A DNA stretch of 64,000 nt, taken from Candidatus Magasanikbacteria bacterium CG10_big_fil_rev_8_21_14_0_10_36_32. Its GTDB lineage: Bacteria > Patescibacteriota > Patescibacteriia > Magasanikbacterales > GWA2-37-8. Of the stretch, positions 4,912-58,935 are shown piece by piece. Location of the stretch: NCBI GenBank assembly GCA_002778465.1, contig PFBV01000003.1, positions 151,736 through 215,735 on the forward strand, written 5' to 3'. Within the stretch, counting starts at the first letter, position 1; each line of letters opens with the position of its first letter. The translations under genes and the position numbers were made by a program. Below the pieces are notes generated by a model that worked only from the letters and a program-made list of their open reading frames with translations, did no database searches and was not told where the DNA came from.

Positions 4912-6510
4912 TTGTTGCTGTACTATATTTGTATGCAAGAACCTCTAAAAAAACCACAATCCATAAACTTTTTGGATAACAATCCGGATGACCAATCGCT
5001 CAATTTTCCAGTCCAACCGCATCCGGACAAAAGGAAGAAAAACAAATTCTTTCTTTATTTTATAATTGTTGCTATCATTGTAATTTCTATCGTTGTTTGG
5101 GGAAAACAAACATCCTCCAACACATCCGGCAATTTATCTGATGAATCAACCAGTCTAACCTTATTAGAACCTAAAAAACCAGGAATTTTTAAATCAATCA
5201 AAAATTTCCTATTTTCTTCTGATGATTTATTGATTGGACAAAAAGATGATCGAATCAATATCTTATTACTTGGAGTCGGCGGATACGGACATGACGGTCC
5301 ATATTTAAGTGATACTAACATTATTGTCAGTATAAAACCAAGTACAAAAGAAGTATCAATGATTTCAGTACCTCGCGATTTAGGAGTACAAATTGAAAAT
5401 TATGGCATTTATAAAATAAATTATGCCGACGCCTTTGGTGAAAGTCGATATCCAGGTCAAGGTGGAGAATATGCCAGACAAATTTTTAACCAAACTTTCA
5501 ACCAAGAAATTCCCTATTACATCAGAGCAGATTTCTCAGCATTTAAACAAATTATTGACAGTGTCGGCGGAATTGATATTGAAGTCAAAAAATCATTTAT
5601 AGATCAGGCCTATCCGGGACAAAATTATAGTTATCAAACAATTTCTTTTAATGCTGGTTGGCAAACAATGGATGGAGAGAAAGCATTACAATTTGCCCGC
5701 TCAAGACACGGCTCAAATGGAGAAAGTTCCGACTTTGCCCGTGCCAAACGACAACAACAAATACTGGTTGCTTTAAAAGATAAAGTTTTATCTTTTGGAA
5801 CATTGGCAAATCCCGTAACTATACAAAAAATTTTAGAATCACTTTCTGGAAATATCACCACTAATTTTAATTTTACCCAGCTGGTATATTTAGTAAATTT
5901 CTTTAAAGATTTAAATAATCTTAATATAAAAAATATCACTTTAGATGATGGACCAAATGGTTATTTAACTTCATATATCACTCCAACTGGCATGTTTATT
6001 TTAGCGCCAAAATCAGGAAATTTTGATGAAATTGACGCATTAATAAATAACGTATTTAATTCAAATTTTATTGCTCAACCGCCAACAGCTTTAATTGTAC
6101 ATCCTTCCGCTTATGTTCAAACTTCAGGATTAAACAACCCATCTTCCACTATCTCCAAAATGACTCCTTTTAAAACAGTAAATGTTGAGATTAAAAATGG
6201 AACTTGGCGAGTTGGCTTGGCCGCTCGTATGCAAAACTTATTATCTGATAGCGGTTTTTCAGTATTAAATATCGGCAACAGTTTAAAAAGACCTTTACCA
6301 ACAACAACATTTTATTTAATTAACCGTTCAGTTGACAATGAAGCAGTGGTTTTATTAAATAAAAAACTACCTGGAAAAATTTCAATGGAATTACCTGATT
6401 GGTTAACTAACGAGTATGATGATCCCACTACAACAGAAGATGAAACCGGACCAAAATTCAACGATCAAATTGATATATTAATTGTTTTAGGAACAGATAC
6501 TAAAGAATAA
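4912..6510 (+). CDS. LytR-CpsA-Psr (LCP) family cell-envelope phosphotransferase with an N-terminal TM anchor
   Basis: A TM helix (FFLYFIIVAIIVISIVVW) followed by an LCP domain (ILLLGVGGYGHDGPYLSDTNIIVSI..ISVPRDL...GGEKALQFARSRH) and a LytR_C-like tail. Confidence 0.8.
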   Translation: MLLYYICMQEPLKKPQSINFLDNNPDDQSLNFPVQPHPDKRKKNKFFLYFIIVAIIVISIVVWGKQTSSNTSGNLSDESTSLTLLEPKKPGIFKSIKNFLFSSDDLLIGQKDDRINILLLGVGGYGHDGPYLSDTNIIVSIKPSTKEVSMISVPRDLGVQIENYGIYKINYADAFGESRYPGQGGEYARQIFNQTFNQEIPYYIRADFSAFKQIIDSVGGIDIEVKKSFIDQAYPGQNYSYQTISFNAGWQTMDGEKALQFARSRHGSNGESSDFARAKRQQQILVALKDKVLSFGTLANPVTIQKILESLSGNITTNFNFTQLVYLVNFFKDLNNLNIKNITLDDGPNGYLTSYITPTGMFILAPKSGNFDEIDALINNVFNSNFIAQPPTALIVHPSAYVQTSGLNNPSSTISKMTPFKTVNVEIKNGTWRVGLAARMQNLLSDSGFSVLNIGNSLKRPLPTTTFYLINRSVDNEAVVLLNKKLPGKISMELPDWLTNEYDDPTTTEDETGPKFNDQIDILIVLGTDTKE

Positions 6511-11908: not shown

Positions 11909-12363
11909 TTATGGATGGTCAACTTAAAAATTTTCAATCTCCTTCCATTGAAAGATTGATTGCTATAATTATTTTTTCTTTTTTAGCCACTTTTACAATT
12001 TCTCGTTTAATGGTTTATTTAGTGCTTGAACATTTAATGCCAGATTTCTTTCTTACCATTAAAGGTGTCCACATACACCATTTCGCTTATGGAGTATTTA
12101 TCCTAACTGTTATCAGTTTTTATTTCATTATTGGCCAACCAACATCTGGCACCAAACGATTCCGTTGGGCAACAGCAATCTACGGTATTGGTTTAGGACT
12201 GACTTTTGACGAATTTGGAATGTGGATACATTTAGAAGATAATTATTGGATTAGACAAAGCTACGATGCTGTCATTATTATTACTTTACTGCTTTTAAAT
12301 ATCGCTTATCGAAAATTTGTGTGGCGGTGGCTAAAAGAAATATACCGTTTAGTTAAAAAATAA
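11890..12363 (+). CDS. Hypothetical membrane protein (4 TM helices)
   Basis: Hydrophobic segments. No motif recognized. Confidence 0.4.
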   Translation: MFQSKIIMDGQLKNFQSPSIERLIAIIIFSFLATFTISRLMVYLVLEHLMPDFFLTIKGVHIHHFAYGVFILTVISFYFIIGQPTSGTKRFRWATAIYGIGLGLTFDEFGMWIHLEDNYWIRQSYDAVIIITLLLLNIAYRKFVWRWLKEIYRLVKK

Positions 12364-12369
12364 ATAACT

Positions 12370-12397
12370 AAAAAATCCCTTTCAAAAGGGATTTTTT
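12370..12397. terminator. Bidirectional intrinsic terminator
   Basis: aaaaaatcccttt-caaa-agggatttttt, a perfect hairpin flanked by A and T runs. Confidence 0.7.
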
Positions 12398-12575
12398 AGT
12401 GCAGGCGCGAAGGGCGAACCTTAATGCCAATGGTGATACAAAGGGCCAATCGCGACCTGCTTCAATATTCTATCAAAAACAGTCTAAATATGCAAGAAAA
12501 AACGATTAAAATAGGAATACCGCCCCGTAAAACGGAGCGGTATTCTTTAGCACTAAAGGTTTTTTTGTATCACGA
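12398..12575 (-). ncRNA. Candidate small non-coding RNA of about 175 nt, class undetermined. Strand inferred from the flanking promoter.
   Basis: A consensus promoter (12581-12609, minus) and a terminator (12370-12397) bracket about 175 nt with no ORF. A long-range helix pairs GUGAUACAAA with UUUGUAUCAC, and internal hairpins are present (GAAUACCGC...GCGGUAUUC; CUUUAG..CUAAAG). Confidence 0.4.
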
Positions 12576-12580
12576 AAAGT

Positions 12581-12609
12581 ATTATAGCACATTTTAAGGC
12601 TCTTGTCAA
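12581..12609 (-). promoter_or_regulatory. Consensus sigma70 promoter with extended -10 (copy 1 of a 4-copy promoter module)
   Basis: Minus strand: TTGACA, then AGAGCCTTAAAATGTGC (17 nt), then TATAAT. Confidence 0.6.
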
Positions 12610-14163: not shown

Positions 14164-15165
14164 CTATTGGCTCACCCAATATTTTTGCAGAAGTTCGCTT
14201 CTGATTTTTTGCGTGTTTCCGTGTTTCAGCATCCCCAAATATGATTGTAATGTTTCCTCTTTTGGATTTTCTTTCACACTGGCAAACATCCTTCTTTTTG
14301 TCGCCCGCCGCAAAACGCGATGGTCGGGAAAATTAACCCAGCCGAGAAAATCCGCGCCGGAAGCGTAGGTTTGAATAAAAACTTTTTTATCGTGCAAAGA
14401 CAATTTCAGCCGTGTTTGTAAAAATTCGGCGATTCGTAAAATAATATTTTTAAGCCATTTTTTGTCCGCTGATAATATGGCAAAATCATCAGCGTAACGG
14501 ATATATTTTTTCGCGCGCAAATTATGTTTCATCCATTGGTCCAATTCATTCAAATAGACATTGGAAAATAATTGAGAAGTCAAATTACCCAGCGGTAAAC
14601 CGACACCGGTTTTGTTTTCGTCGGAATAACTCTCAATCACATTTTTTAACAGCCGCATAATATTTTTATTCGGGATATATTCATCTAAAATTTCCATCAA
14701 AATATTATGGTCAATGCTGGCGAAAAACTTGCGAATATCGCATTTTAATATCCAGCAAGTCCGGCTGTTATTGCGGCTTTCGCTTAAAGCCATCCGTTGA
14801 AACCGCTTGACCGCTTTGTGTGTGCCTTTATTCAGACGGCAAGAATACGAATCGGCGATGAATAACCGGTCAAAAAACGAATATAATATCCGATAAATGG
14901 CGTGATGCAACAAGCGATCGCGGACGCCGGCTTTGTGGATGTGGCGCGGCTTCGGGTCGCTGATATTAAACGCTTCGTAAGGCCCGTGCCGGTAATTTCC
15001 GCTTGCCAAATCTTCGTGAAGAGATATAATATTATCAGCTAGGTTGCGGCTGAATTCTAAAACATCAGGCTTGGATTTCTTGCCGACAACAAACTCGCCC
15101 CAGGCGAGAAATAAATTTTCAAATGAAATAATATCTTCAAAACTATGGTTCAGCTTGCTTTTCAT
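14164..15165 (-). CDS. DGR reverse transcriptase. The ORF track extends it to 15306, but the likely start is MKSKLNHSFEDIISFENLFLAWGEF, preceded by AGGA.
   Basis: RT domains with LPLGNLTSQLFSNVYLNELDQ (the DGR-specific I/LGxxxSQ motif that replaces QGxxxSP) and YADDFAILS. Size of about 333 aa is typical of DGR RTs. GC content is higher than the host background. Confidence 0.88.
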   Translation of the reverse strand: MKSKLNHSFEDIISFENLFLAWGEFVVGKKSKPDVLEFSRNLADNIISLHEDLASGNYRHGPYEAFNISDPKPRHIHKAGVRDRLLHHAIYRILYSFFDRLFIADSYSCRLNKGTHKAVKRFQRMALSESRNNSRTCWILKCDIRKFFASIDHNILMEILDEYIPNKNIMRLLKNVIESYSDENKTGVGLPLGNLTSQLFSNVYLNELDQWMKHNLRAKKYIRYADDFAILSADKKWLKNIILRIAEFLQTRLKLSLHDKKVFIQTYASGADFLGWVNFPDHRVLRRATKRRMFASVKENPKEETLQSYLGMLKHGNTQKIRSELLQKYWVSQ

Positions 15166-15185
15166 AATAATAATTCCTCTTATAA

Positions 15186-15195
15186 CCCCCCCCCC
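15186..15195. repeat. Homopolymeric C10 (G10 on the minus strand) tract between the divergent RT and avd-like starts
   Basis: tataaCCCCCCCCCCgacaa. It lies about 20 nt upstream of the RT start codon and about 8 nt upstream of the avd-like GTG start. Confidence 0.8.
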
Positions 15196-15203
15196 GACAA
15201 CCC

Positions 15204-15548
15204 GTGGTGATTGGCAAGGGTAAGGAAGCATACCAACTCTGGCTTGTTCTTCATAGAAACTTTCCCAAAACGGAACGTTTTGGTTTGGGTCAAAAAATTG
15301 ACACAATATTTTTAGAAATTTTAGAACTTGGTTATTCGGCCGGATATCTGCCGCCCGAACAGAAAACCGTCGCCTTGGGAAAAACCATCACTCGCTTGGA
15401 TATATTAAAATTTCTTTTTCAAATTGCATGGGAAAATAAACTGATTCCAAACAATAAATACATTATACTGTCTCAAAAACTGGAAGAAATCGGCCGCATG
15501 CTCGGCGGCTGGAAAAAGGGGCTTCTAAACAAAACTCCCGTAAATTAA
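15204..15548 (+). CDS. avd: Avd-like accessory protein (four-helix bundle, 23S rRNA intervening-sequence protein family), on the strand opposite to the RT and TR
   Basis: FPKTERFGLGQKID... and ...LSQKLEEIGRMLGGWKKGL match the 23S_rRNA_IVP/Avd family pattern (FPKxExxxL.sQlrRA ... eigkmL.gL). It occupies the TR-RT spacer. GTG start. Confidence 0.6.
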   Translation: MVIGKGKEAYQLWLVLHRNFPKTERFGLGQKIDTIFLEILELGYSAGYLPPEQKTVALGKTITRLDILKFLFQIAWENKLIPNNKYIILSQKLEEIGRMLGGWKKGLLNKTPVN

Positions 15549-15564
15549 ACGGGAGAAAACAACA

Positions 15565-15668
15565 GTCGCGAGAAAAGACACGGTTGCCAGCGTTCCACCT
15601 GTTCGGATTCTCAACCGAATTGGCGTTCACGTTCCAGCCGTCATCGTTCCGGTTTACGTTCACGGCGC
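15565..15668 (-). repeat. DGR template repeat (TR)
   Basis: A stretch of about 104 bp homologous to the 3' ends of both target genes. On the minus strand it reads ...AVNVNRNDDGWNVNANSVENPNRWNAGNRVFSR with many AAC codons. All 12 mismatches to VR1 fall at TR adenines. Confidence 0.85.
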
Positions 15669-15918
15669 CCGTTTTCACGCAAAAAATCATCCTTTGCACC
15701 ATTCCTTGAATACTCTTGGAATTGAATTTTATATGGGACATAAGAAGTCCTCTAATTTTTCGCGCCGATTCTTGTTTTTTTGAAAAATTTTTTTATACTC
15801 TCGCGCAAGGCATGCCCAGCACGACTCTCACAAAAAATATTTTAGATACTGTGTCACGCAAGCCGTAGCCGACGCGAAAAACACAATTTCCATTTTTATA
15901 ATAGCATAAAATTTTAGA

Positions 15919-15947
15919 TAAAAAAAGCCCCGCACAAGTGCGGGGCC
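15919..15947 (-). terminator. Intrinsic terminator of target gene 1, a conserved GC-rich hairpin also present downstream of target 2. It may also act as a DGR homing stem-loop/cruciform.
   Basis: Minus strand: GCCCCGCACTTGTGCGGGGC followed by TTTTTTT. A near-identical hairpin sits at 43985-44004. Confidence 0.65.
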
Positions 15948-16006
15948 GAAGAGCCAAAGGAACAAAGAGTTAAAGGGTCAAAAGGATAAGGATAAGGAAA
16001 CAAGAA

Positions 16007-16603
16007 TCAGCGAGAAAAGACACGGCTGCCAGCGCTCCACCTGTCCGGATCCTCAACCGAATTGGCGTGCACGTCCCAGCCGTCACCGTACCGGTGGACG
16101 TACACGGCGCGGAGCACTCCACTGACATCGCGAACATAGAAGATGTTCGTATAGCCGTTGGTGAGAAGTACGCCCGGCTCGCCGTTTGGCTGACAATTCA
16201 CCAGTTTGTAAACGCCGGCCATGGTGACTTCGGCCTTGGCTTCGCCGCCGAGGTCGTTGAGAATTTCGCAATCCAGAGAGACCTTGCTGAGGTCGTGGTG
16301 AGGACGCGAAACCGCCACATCCTTCGCTTCCTCGGTCTTGCCGTAGAACCAGGACTTAAAATTGTCGCCGATGTACAAGAACTTGATGGTGATGTTGGAC
16401 AGCTTGAAGTGGTCGGCGATGGCGAACTTGGTGACGGTGCCGACGATCAGGGCGGCGATCTGCTTGCGCAGGTCGGCGTCCTTGAGCACGCGCTCCATGT
16501 CGCTGTCATCCCCGCCGATGTCCAGCACGGCGTTGGCGATGGCCTTCATAAACCCGAAGGCCTTGCCCATCCCCTTCAGGAACTCACTCGTTTTCTTTGC
16601 CAT
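16007..16603 (-). CDS. DGR variable (target) protein 1, with the C-terminal VR spanning the last 33 codons (about 16008-16110)
   Basis: 198 aa. The C-terminus AVYVHRYGDGWDVHANSVEDPDRWSAGSRVFSR aligns to the TR with substitutions only at AAC/GAC adenines. The gene is GC-rich (about 55%), has an AAGGAG RBS, and is paralogous to the gene at 44066-44617. Confidence 0.85.
   Translation of the reverse strand: MAKKTSEFLKGMGKAFGFMKAIANAVLDIGGDDSDMERVLKDADLRKQIAALIVGTVTKFAIADHFKLSNITIKFLYIGDNFKSWFYGKTEEAKDVAVSRPHHDLSKVSLDCEILNDLGGEAKAEVTMAGVYKLVNCQPNGEPGVLLTNGYTNIFYVRDVSGVLRAVYVHRYGDGWDVHANSVEDPDRWSAGSRVFSR
16008..16110 (-). repeat. DGR variable repeat VR1
   Basis: The nucleotide alignment to the TR shows 12 differences, all at TR adenine positions on the coding strand. 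Confidence 0.85.
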
Positions 16604-16699
16604 GACACTTTCTCCTTGTTTTTGGTCTGCCTCTTGCTAACGCGACATGCGCCAGCCTATGGCTTGCCATTTTTAAAGAACATTACATTATAAGCGAAG

Positions 16700-16844
16700 C
16701 TTAAAATTACGGCGTTGCTCATATAATGAAAAATAAATTTTCCATTTATTCACAACTTGCCATTATAAGTGAAAATCTTGAAATGGCGGCGTTGTTCATA
16801 TATAGAAAACAAGGTTTTTCATCTATTCACAACTTGCCATTATA
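16700..16844. repeat. Tandem repeat, 2 copies of about 77 bp (about 80% identical), in the 5' leader of target gene 1
   Basis: Units cttaaaattacggcgttgctcatataatgaaaaataaattttccatttattcacaacttgccattat and cttgaaatggcggcgttgttcatatatagaaaacaaggtttttcatctattcacaacttgccattat. Each contains the near-palindrome AATGAAAAAT..ATTTTCCATT. Confidence 0.8.
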
Positions 16845-16867
16845 GCACATTTTGAAGGTTTTGTCAA
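16839..16867 (-). promoter_or_regulatory. Consensus sigma70 promoter (copy 2 of the module) driving the repeat-containing leader and target gene 1
   Basis: Minus strand: TTGACA, then AAACCTTCAAAATGTGC (17 nt), then TATAAT. Confidence 0.6.
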
Positions 16868-16994
16868 GGGTTTAATTTGGTTAAAATTAACCAAAACAAA
16901 AAAATATAAAATCATACCAATTCTCAATTTTCAATCAATTTTACAATTTTTAAATTTTCAACTGGCTATTTTTTTATAAAAAATACACAGCAAA

Positions 16995-18693: not shown

Positions 18694-18808
18694 AACAAAA
18701 ATAAACCAATTATCTACTGTTATTTTAGCATATTTCACCAAAAAGATAAAATACCAATTATGGCTTGACAAAACTGTCTAAATAAACTACAATTGATAAC
18801 GTTAATTT

Positions 18809-36065: not shown

Positions 36066-36407
36066 TTACATTTTAATTTCAACATCAACACCCGCCGGTA
36101 AACTCAAACTCATAAGGGCATCAACGCATTTTGGTGAAGCGTTCAGAATATCAATCAAACGTTTATGAGTACGCATTTCAAATTGTTCGCGCGCATTCTT
36201 ATGAACAAAAGTTGAACGATTGACTGTGAAAATATTTTTCTCAGTCGGCAATGGAACAGGACCAACCACTGTAGCTTCGTTGCGCTCAGCGGTATCAATT
36301 ATGGTCTTGGTAGCCTGATCAATAACTTTATTGTCATAAGCGCGAATTTTTATGCGAATTCGACTTATTTCACCAGTTTTTTTAGTTGTCGCAGTAGCTG
36401 CTTTCAT
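36066..36407 (-). CDS. rpsJ: 30S ribosomal protein S10
   Basis: ...IRIKIRAYD... Confidence 0.9.
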   Translation of the reverse strand: MKAATATTKKTGEISRIRIKIRAYDNKVIDQATKTIIDTAERNEATVVGPVPLPTEKNIFTVNRSTFVHKNAREQFEMRTHKRLIDILNASPKCVDALMSLSLPAGVDVEIKM

Positions 36408-36471
36408 GTTTTTTAATTCAATGGACTAAAGAACTTTTGTTAAATTAGATAAATCTCATATTATCTGCGTT

Positions 36472-38888: not shown

Positions 38889-38948
38889 TTTTGTTCTTTA
38901 AGACACAAACCGCCGATCAAAGGCGGTTTTTCTATTTTAAAACCCCCC

Positions 38949-38977
38949 TTGACAAAACCCTCAAAATGTGCTATAAT
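38949..38977 (+). promoter_or_regulatory. Consensus sigma70 promoter (copy 3 of the module)
   Basis: TTGACA, then AAACCCTCAAAATGTGC (17 nt), then TATAAT. Confidence 0.6.
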
Positions 38978-39051
38978 ATAATGGTATTTAATTAAAGATT
39001 TTGGCTAAAATATCACTATTTAAGCCAAATTTAAACCTTAATTTTAAACAT

Positions 39052-39213
39052 ATGGGAGAAACATTCAATCCGCAAGAAGAAGCTTTCTTTAAAAAAGGTG
39101 ATGAAATGTCAGAAAAAAATGAAACTTTAGCTCAAGGCGAAACCACGGTTGGCGCCAAAAAAGCTGAAGAAGTTGAAAAAGATACTGACAGTTGGTTTGA
39201 AGACAAACAATAA
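39052..39213 (+). CDS. Small acidic protein of 53 aa. Alternatively this short promoter-to-terminator unit is an sRNA.
   Basis: Lies between the consensus promoter and a strong terminator (aaaaaaccccgctgataaagcggggtttttt, 39226-39256). No convincing RBS. The ORF-track start at 39001 uses a non-ATG codon. Confidence 0.3.
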   Translation: MGETFNPQEEAFFKKGDEMSEKNETLAQGETTVGAKKAEEVEKDTDSWFEDKQ

Positions 39214-39255
39214 AAATATTAAAAAACCCCGCTGATAAAGCGGGGTTTTTTAATA

Positions 39256-39579
39256 TTACCATTTTCGTTCGTAACTGTTAGAATCAAAAAATCCTATTTC
39301 AGACGGACGAATTATATCCATTTCTTCTTCAGCTATGATTTTAGCAACATTTATTGCTTCTGTGGTCGGGGGTTGTGAATATCTTTTCAATTCATTCTGA
39401 TAACGTTGAACGCTGCTCCAACCTCTTTTTTCCGTTGGCGGAATATTTTCTTCAAAAGATTGCCTTCCCTGAAGACTTGGATCAAATTCGCTAATATGCG
39501 AAGGTTTCCAATCTTTAGGAGTTACACCAACTTGTTCCATGTGTGGAATCAATGAATCACCACGATATTTTGATGCCAT
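39256..39579 (-). CDS. Hypothetical protein
   Basis: 107 aa, no motif recognized. Confidence 0.35.
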   Translation of the reverse strand: MASKYRGDSLIPHMEQVGVTPKDWKPSHISEFDPSLQGRQSFEENIPPTEKRGWSSVQRYQNELKRYSQPPTTEAINVAKIIAEEEMDIIRPSEIGFFDSNSYERKW

Positions 39580-44065: not shown

Positions 44066-44617
44066 TCAGCAAGAGAATACGCGGAGGTCGGCGCACCACC
44101 TGCTCGGAAACCCAACCGAATGGGCGCGCACGTCCCAGCCGCCATCGAGCCGGTTCACATACACAGCGCGAAGCACCCTGTTGACATCGAGAACATAGAA
44201 AATGTTCGCATAGCCGTTGGTGAGAAGTACGCCCGCCTCGCCATTTGGCTGGATCTTCAAGAGCTCATAGATGCCGGACATAGTAACTTCGACCTTAGCT
44301 TTGCCGCCGAGGTCATCAATAATTTCGCAATCCAACGAAGCCGCCTTACAGAGGTCGTGGTGAGGATGCGGAACAACCAAATCCTTTACTTCTTCAGTCT
44401 TGCTGTAAAACCACAACTTGAAGTTGTCGCCGATATAACTGAACTTTACTGCGGCGTTGGACAGCGTGAAATTGTCGGCGACAACGAACTTATTGACAGC
44501 GGTTTCCAAAAATCCATCCGGATTCTTGAGGAACTTCTGAAAATTGGCGGACGTAACTCGTCCGGCCTCCACCTGCCTAAAAAATTCCTTCATCTGTTTG
44601 AAACTGGGTTGTAACAT
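44066..44617 (-). CDS. DGR variable (target) protein 2, a remote paralog, with VR2 at about 44067-44168. Likely start MLQPSFKQ (AGGAG RBS); the ORF track extends it to 44635.
   Basis: The C-terminal 130 aa are homologous to target 1. The final 33 codons (AVYVNRLDGGWDVRAHSVGFPSRWCADLRVFSC) align to the TR with about 20 substitutions at TR adenines plus about 8 non-adenine changes. GC-rich. Confidence 0.8.
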   Translation of the reverse strand: MLQPSFKQMKEFFRQVEAGRVTSANFQKFLKNPDGFLETAVNKFVVADNFTLSNAAVKFSYIGDNFKLWFYSKTEEVKDLVVPHPHHDLCKAASLDCEIIDDLGGKAKVEVTMSGIYELLKIQPNGEAGVLLTNGYANIFYVLDVNRVLRAVYVNRLDGGWDVRAHSVGFPSRWCADLRVFSC

Positions 44618-44720
44618 TCTATCATCTCCTTGCATCCGCAGTATTTAAACAATACATCCGACATCATTGCCAAACATACTGCCAATAAACCTGACGGACA
44701 CGGTAAAAAGAACCGATGTT

Positions 44721-44753: not shown

Positions 44754-44787
44754 ACAAAAAAATGCCCTCAACATTTCTGTTGAGGGC
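44754..44787 (-). terminator. Intrinsic terminator between the upstream small ORF and target gene 2
   Basis: Minus strand: GCCCTCAACAGAAATGTTGAGGGC followed by TTTTTTT. Confidence 0.55.
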
Positions 44788-44833
44788 AAAAGAGCGAAGA
44801 AAAGCGGCTTGACCACTTTTTGGTGATGGGCTA

Positions 44834-45010
44834 TTACTTTTCCGGGGTGAAAATGGAGAGCGTGTAGCAACTCAGGCAGTTGCACTGAATGCGAGAAATG
44901 CGGATACATCTCGTTTTGCGGTTGATGCTGAAGTATCGATGAACCATATGAATTTTGGTTTCCTGACAAGTATCACACATAAGCCACTCAAACTTCATTT
45001 TAGAAATCAT
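44834..45010 (-). CDS. Putative small zinc-ribbon protein of 58 aa. The ORF track offers a longer 92-aa form that starts inside the tandem repeat.
   Basis: MKFEWLMCDTCQETKIH...RCIRISRIQCNC, i.e. C-x2-C ... C-x7-C-x-C. Lies between the repeat-bearing leader and target 2. Confidence 0.3.
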   Translation of the reverse strand: MISKMKFEWLMCDTCQETKIHMVHRYFSINRKTRCIRISRIQCNCLSCYTLSIFTPEK

Positions 45011-45076
45011 TTTCTGCTCCTGTTTTTGTTTTATCCGCTCGCTATTAGCGATTGGAATATCATTGTTAAAGAACAA

Positions 45077-45226
45077 TTTATAAATAAAACTTGAAATTAC
45101 TGCGTTGCTCATATAATGAAAAATAAATTTTTCATCTATTCACAACTTGTGTGTTTATAAATAAAACTTGAAATTACTGCGTTGCTCATATAATGAAAAA
45201 TAAATTTTTCATCTATTCACAACTTG
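45077..45226. repeat. Tandem repeat, 2 near-identical copies of about 77 bp, same family as 16700-16844
   Basis: tttataaataaaacttgaaattactgcgttgctcatataatgaaaaataaatttttcatctattcacaacttg occurs twice. Confidence 0.85.
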
Positions 45227-45228
45227 AA

Positions 45229-45257
45229 ATTATAGCACATTTTTGGGTTTTTGTCAA
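45229..45257 (-). promoter_or_regulatory. Consensus sigma70 promoter (copy 4 of the module)
   Basis: Minus strand: TTGACA, then AAAACCCAAAAATGTGC (17 nt), then TATAAT. Confidence 0.6.
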
Positions 45258-49926: not shown

Positions 49927-49955
49927 TTGACAAAATCATAAAAATATGTTATTAT
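49927..49955 (+). promoter_or_regulatory. Promoter of the GC-rich single-gene cassette
   Basis: TTGACA, 17 nt, then TATTAT preceded by TG (extended -10). Confidence 0.5.
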
Positions 49956-50020
49956 ACTCCGTTGTTCTTTAGAAAAATAACTAAACGGCCATTAATGGCC
50001 CAAAAACAAGGAGAAAAACA

Positions 50021-50305
50021 ATGAAATATCCGACAATGTTCATTGCTCGCGTGATGATAACTCTGCCAGAACAGAAACAGCTTCGCGCCGCACTGAACTC
50101 CGGCGTGGACACCCCTGTCGGTGAATATCTCTATCAGATGTGCTACTTCAAGCTCACTCCGGACTACATCCTCAATAAAGTAAGAATGCCGCCCGGCACA
50201 AAGGAACGACAAATAGCCCAAAGAATTCTGAAATGTCGTGAACTCTACGCCGAATGGCGCCGTCTCTACATCAAGGAATGGCGCCAGACAAAACAAAAAA
50301 ATTAA
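50021..50305 (+). CDS. Hypothetical protein of 94 aa encoded by a GC-rich gene with foreign-looking codon usage
   Basis: GC is about 48% against a background of about 32%. Uses codons such as CTG, CGC, GCC and TCC. Has its own promoter, an AAGGAG RBS and a terminator at 50339-50375 (gacccccgcg...cgggggtc then tttt). Confidence 0.5.
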   Translation: MKYPTMFIARVMITLPEQKQLRAALNSGVDTPVGEYLYQMCYFKLTPDYILNKVRMPPGTKERQIAQRILKCRELYAEWRRLYIKEWRQTKQKN

Positions 50306-58388: not shown

Positions 58389-58935
58389 AATTATTTTTGG
58401 TTTTACCGGACAATTATCATGTGGAAAAGGAACGGCAGCTAAATATTTGGAACAAAAATATAATGCTCAAACTTACCGCTTTTCTACTAAACTGAGAAAC
58501 CTGCTTGATGCTATATATATAGAACACTCGCGCGACGCAATGATAAAAATGTCGGAAGCTGTGCGATCAATTTTTGGCGAAGATATTTTAGCTAAAGCGA
58601 TGGCTAAAGATGCCGCCAATGATTCAAATCCAATTGTTGTGGTTGAAGGAATCCGCCGGCCAGCTGACATTGAATTTCTTAAAGAACTGCCTAATTTTAT
58701 TTTAGTTGAAATTTTTGCCGAACCAGAAACAAGATACCAGCGTCTGATCAAACGCAGAGAAAATTCCGATGATAATTCAAAAACTTACAAACAATTTTTA
58801 GCCGACCACCAACGTCCAACTGAACTGAGTATTTCACAAGTAACACCCGAAGCGGTAGAACATATTGATAACAACGGAACAGTGGAAGACTTAAACAAAC
58901 AACTTGATGTTTTAATTAAAAAATATGCAAATTAA
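58354..58935 (+). CDS. P-loop nucleotide kinase of unknown specificity (predicted dNMP/nucleoside kinase within a dTTP-synthesis cluster)
   Basis: Walker A-like FGFTGQLSCGKGT. Lies between dCMP deaminase and dut. Confidence 0.45.
   Translation: MMVSLNIMTNNKIIFGFTGQLSCGKGTAAKYLEQKYNAQTYRFSTKLRNLLDAIYIEHSRDAMIKMSEAVRSIFGEDILAKAMAKDAANDSNPIVVVEGIRRPADIEFLKELPNFILVEIFAEPETRYQRLIKRRENSDDNSKTYKQFLADHQRPTELSISQVTPEAVEHIDNNGTVEDLNKQLDVLIKKYAN

Follow-up and report, generated by a model that had tools for sequence, protein, structure and literature searches.

Four near-identical promoter sites in a Candidatus Magasanikbacteria genome: a probable lineage-consensus strong promoter, with one pair apparently copied together with its leader

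Four promoter sites and the units behind them

The stretch of Candidatus Magasanikbacteria DNA analyzed here (hereinafter, the window; 64,000 nucleotides, 35.5% GC) encompasses a diversity-generating retroelement (DGR) with its reverse transcriptase (RT), bAvd and a target gene, a paralogue of this target located 28 kb away from the RT, small RNAs and short ORFs (Table 1). The window corresponds to bases 13719-77718 of ENA contig ERZ27293414 k141_1414778, as calculated from the coordinates; a 168-kb sister contig is ERZ27293400 k141_718231. A degenerate 29-mer of the form TTGACA / AAA / N-C-Y-Y-N / AAAA / TGTGC / TATAAT has exactly four matches in the window (copies 1 to 4 in Table 1, denoted below also by their first coordinates), compared with no matches in 100 dinucleotide-preserving shuffles, so that the four near-identical sites described in an earlier note on this DNA are borne out. 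The consensus written in that note holds in its general form and is off by one base at copy 2 (CT, not CC). Each copy is oriented toward a small RNA, or toward a leader and an ORF, with a same-strand intrinsic terminator beyond it. That the four sites resemble each other by chance, as AT-rich intergenic sequences might, is extraordinarily unlikely: the AT-rich background is all that speaks for it, against the outcome of the shuffles and the correct placement and orientation of every copy before a terminator-ended unit.

All four copies combine the maximal hexamer score (12 of 12) with a 17-bp spacer and a TRTG-type extended -10 (TGTG-C-TATAAT), in agreement with the earlier description of strong sigma70-type promoters. 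No other site in the window has a perfect hexamer pair with a 17-bp spacer, and in the two regions scanned, a 12-of-12 score is combined with an upstream TG nowhere else. Promoter activity, promoter strength and the transcription start sites of the copies are inferred from these features. The spacer runs from an AT-tract (AAA) through a GC-enriched N-C-Y-Y segment and a second AT-tract (AAAA) to the G-rich TGTGC; reading the four sequences by eye revealed no dyad, inverted repeat or direct repeat within the 17 bp.

Table 1. Features of the window discussed in the text
Feature	Position	Strand	Remarks
Small RNA B	12360-12495	-	own weaker candidate promoter; own terminator 12400-12367
Small RNA A, ~70 nt	12498-12574	-	driven by copy 1; fold, terminator scan, conservation
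Module copy 1	12581-12609	-	TTGACA AGAGCCTTAAAATGTGC TATAAT
DGR reverse transcriptase	14164-15306	-	Pfam
bAvd	15204-15548	+	Pfam
DGR target gene 1	16007-16603	-	198 aa, 58% GC
boxA-like element	16671-16681	-	GTTCTTTAAAA, perfect GYTCTTTAANA
Two tandem leader units	16687-16838	-	~77 + 75 nt, 77% alike
Module copy 2	16839-16867	-	TTGACA AAACCTTCAAAATGTGC TATAAT
Perfect palindrome	16879-16892	+	GGTTAAAATTAACC; 11 nt upstream of the copy 2 -35
Other perfect GYTCTTTAANA match	38893-38903	+	
Module copy 3	38949-38977	+	TTGACA AAACCCTCAAAATGTGC TATAAT
5' UTR inverted repeat, then 53-aa acidic ORF	39001-39213	+	repeat 39001-39028; ORF 39052-39213
DGR target paralogue	44066-44635	-	60% amino-acid identity
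58-aa cysteine-rich ORF and intrinsic terminator	44763-45010	-	ORF 44834-45010; terminator 44788-44763
boxA-like element	45064-45074	-	GTTCTTTAACA, perfect GYTCTTTAANA
Two tandem leader units	45077-45228	-	100% identical over 73 nt; homologous to 16687-16838
Module copy 4	45229-45257	-	TTGACA AAAACCCAAAAATGTGC TATAAT
Weaker (degraded) relative of the module	49927-49955	+	TTGACAAAATCATAAAAATATGTTATTAT
Other perfect GYTCTTTAANA match	58677-58687	-	

The degraded relative of the module at 49927 precedes a near-boxA leader (GTTCTTTAGAA) and a 94-aa ORF (50021-50305). A fifth copy, TTGACAAAACCATTAAAATGTGCTATAAT, is found in a sister-strain contig, about 3.9 kb past the window end (L125:5312; loci collected from other contigs are designated by L numbers), where it precedes an ORF of about 80 codons, as read from the sequence, with a terminator at its end. 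Two promoters in the window that could serve for comparison, the housekeeping promoter of tRNA-Leu at 18765 and a promoter-like site (43967-43939) that precedes the gene cluster 43838-40717, do not contain the perfect module. Against the window average, the GC content is much higher in four ORFs that follow the module or its relative, namely 16007-16603 (58%), 44066-44635 (50%), 50021-50305 (47%) and L125:5399-5645 (44%); this elevation is seen neither in the acidic ORF (36%) nor in the cysteine-rich ORF (41%).

Leader units, boxA-like elements and the DGR

Copy 2 is followed by two hairpin units of ~76 nt, a boxA-like element and, further on, a hairpin in the 5' UTR and a strong ribosome-binding site before DGR target 1, and copy 4 by two identical leader units, a boxA-like element, the 58-aa cysteine-rich ORF, for which a Pfam search found no family, and a terminator. 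The earlier suggestion that two copies drive the leaders of DGR targets therefore stands for copy 2 and, for copy 4, holds only indirectly, because this copy drives a leader with the 58-aa ORF and the target paralogue has a promoter of its own (TTGACA-17-TATTAA at 44749-44721).

The leader unit, ~62-77 nt long and located directly after the promoter, consists of a hairpin with an AA/CA bulge, a GUUGU/GCAAC stem, tandem G.A pairs and the tail GCCGCCAUUUCAAG, with a TATAAT-like box at its 3' end; it is doubled in the window and in L143, and single in L192. At L192:5519-5580, an identical 29-mer and one unit, which matches the second of the two units behind 16839 at 94% identity, precede an unrelated 47-aa membrane ORF, and the upstream flank differs from that of 16839. 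At L143:1334-1464, the module and two diverged units stand ahead of a GC-rich ORF-less region, and the stem reads GUUCU/GGAAC, a compensatory change with respect to GUUGU/GCAAC. Over seven leader units, RNAalifold yielded weak covariation support (four double-change pairs), in a MAFFT alignment that misplaces a gap. The GC-rich region of L143 (1480-1900; ~400 nt) is ORF-poor, packed with hairpins and located just ahead of the enolase gene, and may be a structured RNA. Across the four contexts, the cargo after the leader varies (a DGR target, a cysteine-rich ORF, a membrane ORF and a GC-rich ORF-less region), and a boxA-like element follows the leader units in all of them (16839, 45229, L192 and L143).

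The leader unit was found in only three places in about 1.4 Mb of collected loci together with the window, and an nhmmer profile of the unit detected no additional copies over the ~1.4 Mb. BLAST and tblastn searches with the four downstream units against 192 collected loci returned nothing beyond L192 and L143 for the leader unit and L153 for small RNA B, and an Rfam search of the 16839 leader at permissive E-values gave no family match.

The boxA consensus GYTCTTTAANA was derived for gamma-proteobacteria, and boxA is found also before non-rRNA genes (PMC5725501). The window contains four perfect matches, versus 0.73 expected, to this gamma-proteobacterial consensus, which may not be that of the host. 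The exact published consensus alone is enriched; a looser, mismatch-tolerant boxA-like pattern showed no enrichment in the window. In the two module-driven leaders, a hairpin precedes the perfect element and the start codon follows 43-64 nt further on, and behind the remaining module copies no perfect boxA is present. One-mismatch forms occur after the 49927 site and a two-mismatch form after the L125 copy. The near-matches are located at 49964 (+), at 36434 (-), 27 nt upstream of the ORF 36066-36407, and near position 5347 of L125.

In DGR target 1, every difference between the 3'-terminal variable region and the template repeat involves a template adenine. At the corresponding end of the paralogue, the differences extend to non-adenine positions and to the 3' end region, and because of them the paralogue may no longer be diversified. 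In relatives, parB and parA directly follow relA, so the DGR cassette together with the copy 2 promoter (window 14164-16970) is, compared with them, an insertion between relA and parB; the inserted segment holds the RT, bAvd, the template repeat, target 1, and the promoter and leader of this target. In a homologous DGR locus, TTGACAAAACCGCCAAAATGTGATATAAT is found ahead of two tandem targets.

To delineate where the similarity between the sites ends, 100 bases upstream and 200 bases downstream of each site were aligned, and ungapped identity was scored over 60 bases. The downstream flanks of 16839 and 45229 are identical in 48 of 60 positions and the upstream flanks of 16839 and L125 in 33 of 60; all remaining flank pairs score 11-25 of 60, approximately the chance level for this composition. 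Barring the 16839/L125 upstream flank, the copies at 12581, 38949 and in L125 have nothing in common with the others outside the 29-mer. Because homology extends past the 29-mer only in the pair 16839/45229, we consider this pair a single true duplication, with a common part that comprises the promoter, about 150 nt of tandem hairpin leader and the boxA-like element; the remaining copies appear to be alike merely as promoters. The duplication of a module proposed in the earlier note is accordingly retained for this one pair, with its two leader units, boxA-like element and paralogous loci, and is not seen in the other pairs.

An extension of this scenario to all copies, in which the 29-mer is a duplicated or portable promoter cassette that was copied, alone or with the leader, in front of new genes, is in our estimate unlikely. 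It draws on the shared promoter and leader of 16839 and 45229, on the identical 29-mer with a 94% identical unit before an unrelated gene and behind a different upstream flank in L192, on the module with two diverged units in L143, and on the insertion of the DGR cassette with copy 2 between relA and parB, as compared with relatives. Against it stand the dissimilar surroundings of the 12581, 38949 and L125 copies, the vertical inheritance of the 12581 promoter along with its small RNA in five relatives (see below), the restriction of the leader unit to three places in the collected loci and the window, and the absence both of terminal repeats and of any copy of the module in the viral contigs scanned.

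A perfect palindrome lies upstream of copy 2 (Table 1). A related palindrome, GGCTAANNTTAGCC (two or fewer mismatches), is present at the same offset at 6 of 95 CPR module sites, and L125 carries GTCTAATTTTAGCC there (5281-5294). The palindrome GGYTAAWWTTARCC (often TTGGCTAAAATTAGCCAAA) is found also at about +12 to +30 or just past terminators in many CPR contigs (for example, L073, L082, L092, L118 and L170), and is a candidate binding site of a lineage-specific regulator. As a general element of the window, GGYTAANNTTARCC was rejected, with a single perfect copy and a count at two or fewer mismatches that equals the chance level.

Conservation of copies 1 and 3 and recurrence of the promoter

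The ORF-less unit of 175 nt that the earlier note placed behind copy 1 is really two tandem small RNAs, of which the first alone is driven by the module. Transcription from copy 1 would start near 12574, and small RNA A ends with a 14-bp GC-rich hairpin (12545-12515) and a U-rich tail; the whole unit downstream of 12581 has a fold z-score of -7.6. The 5' segments of small RNA A allow alternative pairings (GCUAAAG / CUUUAGUGC / UAAAG). Small RNA B has a candidate promoter, TTGCAT-17-TAGAAT (12495-12467), and a near-invariant core of 45 nt, GATTGGCCCTTTGTATCACCATTGGCATTAAGGTTCGCCCTTCG, enclosed by a covarying stem. Both RNAs are kept in five relatives with compensatory changes in the stems, and in the hairpin of RNA A the letters change and the pairing stays. 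The two RNAs, adjacent and divergent from relA, are conserved across Magasanikbacteria (L153:1080-1290; L198-L201 upstream of relA); in L200 and L201, they are about 400 nt apart, with a promoter-like site before each. An Rfam search of the whole window at gathering scores identified three tRNAs only, and at permissive E-values the unit downstream of 12581 gave no credible family for either small RNA.

The closest named relatives of the window RelA/SpoT are from Candidatus Magasanikbacteria, with 65-68% identity. Orthologues of copy 1 were collected from the relA-upstream regions of four relatives, found via RelA/SpoT homologues, and from L153, found in a metagenome scan; the RelA identity of the relatives that provided these orthologues is 68-83%. 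The orthologous promoters retain CTTGACAAG, TRTG (TGTG or TATG) and a near-consensus -10, and their spacers (AGCCTTAAAA, TGCTTGAAAA, AGGGCTAAAA, TCCGCCTTTT and ATGGATAATT) share 8-13 of 17 bases with the window copy. Thus, the composition of the spacer (GC-rich, then AT-rich) is retained and the mid-spacer sequence drifts.

Copy 3 begins 20 nt past the terminator of the upstream gene (38907-38929). The tiny acidic ORF that had been noted behind it is confirmed; it has no obvious Shine-Dalgarno (SD) sequence, is followed by a bidirectional terminator (39215-39257) and has a homologue with 74% amino-acid identity. An identical acidic ORF is present on a contig of 513 kb. In the orthologous locus L205, the promoter is identical in 29 of 29 positions at 86% overall nucleotide identity, which shows that the copy 3 promoter as a whole is under purifying selection; taken alone, the 17/17 identity of the spacer is not significant (0.86^17 ~ 0.08) and comes from a single, closer orthologue. 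Given the complete identity of the orthologue, some constraint on the exact spacer sequence is possible. The 12-bp inverted repeat in the 5' UTR of the acidic ORF is kept in L205 (409-588) with an altered loop, and a similar arrangement, a palindrome followed by an ATG without an SD sequence and a hydrophilic small protein, is found behind the module in L017, L069 and L111.

Species-representative genomes (one genome per species) were scanned for TTGACA-N8-AAAATGTGCTATAAT, in which the first eight spacer bases are free. There are at least 120 matches, compared with a chance estimate from composition of about three or fewer, and the phyla among the matches listed include Bacillota, Patescibacteria, Armatimonadota and others. 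Nine of the matches listed stand 8-34 nt ahead of a tRNA or tmRNA, and one is located 6 nt ahead of the RNase P RNA in a Magasanikbacterium. Because such genes follow the matches across phyla, the 3' half of the spacer can be considered a recurrent component of strong promoters in several phyla. Among the labelled matches listed, AAA after the -35 occurs in 68-89% of those from Patescibacteria, and C-Y-Y at spacer positions 5-7 is carried by 7 of the 19 matches from Patescibacteria versus 4 of the 89 from other phyla (Fisher p = 4e-4).

At least 72 exact matches to the full window-type 29-mer are present in contigs from metagenomes, almost all of them CPR-like; long contigs contain several each. 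The units behind these matches include RNase P RNA (L098 and L134, identified with Rfam; L164 and L197, identified by the GAGGAAAGTCC motif), tRNA-Asn, nusA, ndk, a DEAD-box helicase, a GT4 glycosyltransferase, short ORF-less transcripts or small RNAs, and many small hypothetical ORFs without a known domain. Two families of terminator-ended, ORF-less transcripts of ~50-75 nt directly follow the module, one in L007, L126 and L130 and the other in L155, L166 and L187; one of the short-transcript families starts with ...ATATAGTGATAA... and the other with ...ATGGAGTGCCA.... The pairs L118/L170, L171/L190 and L154/L189 were considered as rRNA leaders and rejected, with no rRNA within 1.5 kb by Rfam and by the 16S 5'-end motif.

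An independent set of 31 perfect-hexamer promoters from CPR loci, in the selection of which the spacer played no part, displays the same skeleton, AAA-N5-AAAA-T-R-T-G-N: positions 1-3 are A-rich, 4-8 mixed and 9-12 A/T-rich, followed by T-R-T-G. In the mid-spacer, the lineage prefers C/G-C/G-T; about one third of the lineage promoters carry C-Y-Y, and the others show GGCT or GTGC in this place.

A probable lineage consensus and its relation to known promoters

Taken together, these observations suggest that the four sites are, in all probability, instances of the lineage-consensus strong housekeeping promoter of Magasanikbacteria-like CPR rather than a special regulatory module. A sigma70/sigmaA-type factor would read TTGACA (-35) and TATAAT (-10) over the optimal 17-bp spacer, TGTG upstream of the -10 would serve as an extended -10 of the TRTG type, which characterizes Terrabacteria (Gram-positive-type lineages), and the rest of the spacer would obey a general four-region rule of composition. 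The likeness of the four sites would then reflect closeness to the lineage optimum, not shared descent or a hidden operator, with the exception of 16839/45229, which would have been copied along with the leader. The predicted job of these promoters is high constitutive transcription of short terminator-ended units, that is, the small RNA, the 53-aa acidic protein, and the hairpin/boxA leaders before the DGR target and the cysteine-rich ORF. The possibility raised in the earlier note, that the spacer is a general strong-promoter consensus, is realized at the lineage level, where the 29-mer precedes RNase P RNA, tRNA-Asn, nusA, ndk and the DEAD-box helicase gene. The use of the consensus at many housekeeping genes is shown for the lineage and not for this genome, of which about 85 kb was covered, because the housekeeping promoters of the window lack the perfect module.

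When the five copies of this genome are compared over the eight free spacer bases, they agree at a mean of 5.0 of 8 positions; the corresponding values are 3.5 for unrelated lineage promoters and 2.2 for random sequence, and 4.7% of random five-member subsets of the lineage promoters reach 5.0 of 8. The excess over the lineage expectation is therefore marginal, and the duplicated pair contributes part of it.

The conserved part of the spacer, with its AAACC(C/T)T, might instead be a specific element, either an operator bound by a global regulator or a sequence contacted by RNA polymerase (through sigma or the beta' zipper) in this lineage specifically. The enrichment of mid-spacer C-Y-Y in Patescibacteria only (among the matches listed), the at least 72 exact 29-mers in differing contexts and the full conservation of the 38949 orthologue are compatible with this possibility, and there is a precedent for core-enzyme reading of the spacer, the Z-element of the phage T7 A1 promoter, AACCT (PMC3173786). 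We nevertheless regard a specific element as improbable: the spacer contains no dyad or direct repeat, its middle part drifts freely in the 12581 orthologues, C-Y-Y is limited to about one third of the lineage promoters, the Z-element occupies -22 to -18 as opposed to about -28 to -23 for AACC(C/T)T here, and GC enrichment of the second spacer region is already a described general feature. The embedded regulator site proposed in the earlier note thus loses ground, and the spacer conservation, which that note treated as unexplained, fits the published four-region organization (PMC12641261). A more elaborate scenario can be envisaged in which the Magasanikbacteria polymerase reads a longer core promoter, with AAA-N-C-C/T-T at about -29 to -23 recognized via sigma, the beta' zipper or a general factor, and in which the promoter-hairpin-boxA composite (16839, 45229, L192 and L143) is a portable high-expression and antitermination cassette copied before DGR targets and other small genes; we consider it quite doubtful.

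Under the lineage-consensus interpretation, near-identical 29-mers in a small AT-rich CPR genome need not be repeats or operators, which calls for caution in the analysis of such sequences. For organisms without transcriptomes, a practical consensus, (C/A)-TTGACA-AAA-N-S-S-T-N-AAAA-TGTGC-TATAAT, offers a means of locating units with strong expression in metagenomes of Magasanikbacteria, such as small RNAs, RNase P RNA, DGR targets and tiny proteins. The sequence of copy 2 suggests that few promoter sequences at the disposal of the cell are stronger than the one preceding the DGR target of this genome. The promoter itself is less unusual than the leader hairpin units, the boxA-like elements, the two conserved small RNAs and the palindrome.

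In rrn leaders, the hairpin comes first and is followed by boxA. The two module-driven leaders with a perfect GYTCTTTAANA and a hairpin upstream resemble the rRNA-operon promoter with its boxA leader (PMC5725501); the differences are that the consensus is gamma-proteobacterial, that NusB/NusE binding is putative here, and that the remaining module copies lack a perfect boxA.

The Z-element of the phage T7 A1/A2 promoters (AACCT / AACAT), located at -22 to -18 and read by the beta' zipper (PMC3173786), is similar to the module in that a spacer sequence contributes to promoter use and that the module contains AACC(C/T)T. The Z-element spans spacer bases 9-13, whereas the module motif spans bases 2-7, and in the module the Z position is occupied by an A-tract, (N)AAAA. 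Because the Z-element lies 6-7 bp further downstream, the two are not equated, and the T7A1 element is ruled out by position as an explanation.

Among the closest known parallels are the TRTG promoters of Gram-positive-type sigmaA. The TG/TRTG extended -10 is established (PMC2613000, PMC12641261), including the -16 TRTG of Bacillus subtilis (Voskuil and Chambliss, as cited in PMC2613000 and summarized in PMC12641261). The module shares with these promoters TTGACA, the 17-bp spacer, T-G-T-G-n-TATAAT, an A-rich segment after the -35 and a frequent C just upstream of the -35, a position at which cytosine enrichment has been reported (PMC12641261), as well as the location before stable RNAs and highly expressed genes. 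It differs in that the host belongs to an uncultivated lineage of Patescibacteria that prefers C/G-C/G-T in the mid-spacer, and in that the promoters are known from sequence alone.

[quoted passage not shown] The published regions are statistical enrichments over many promoters, with a mainly thymine first tract, whereas the strongest promoters examined here follow the pattern almost deterministically, with adenine in the first tract.
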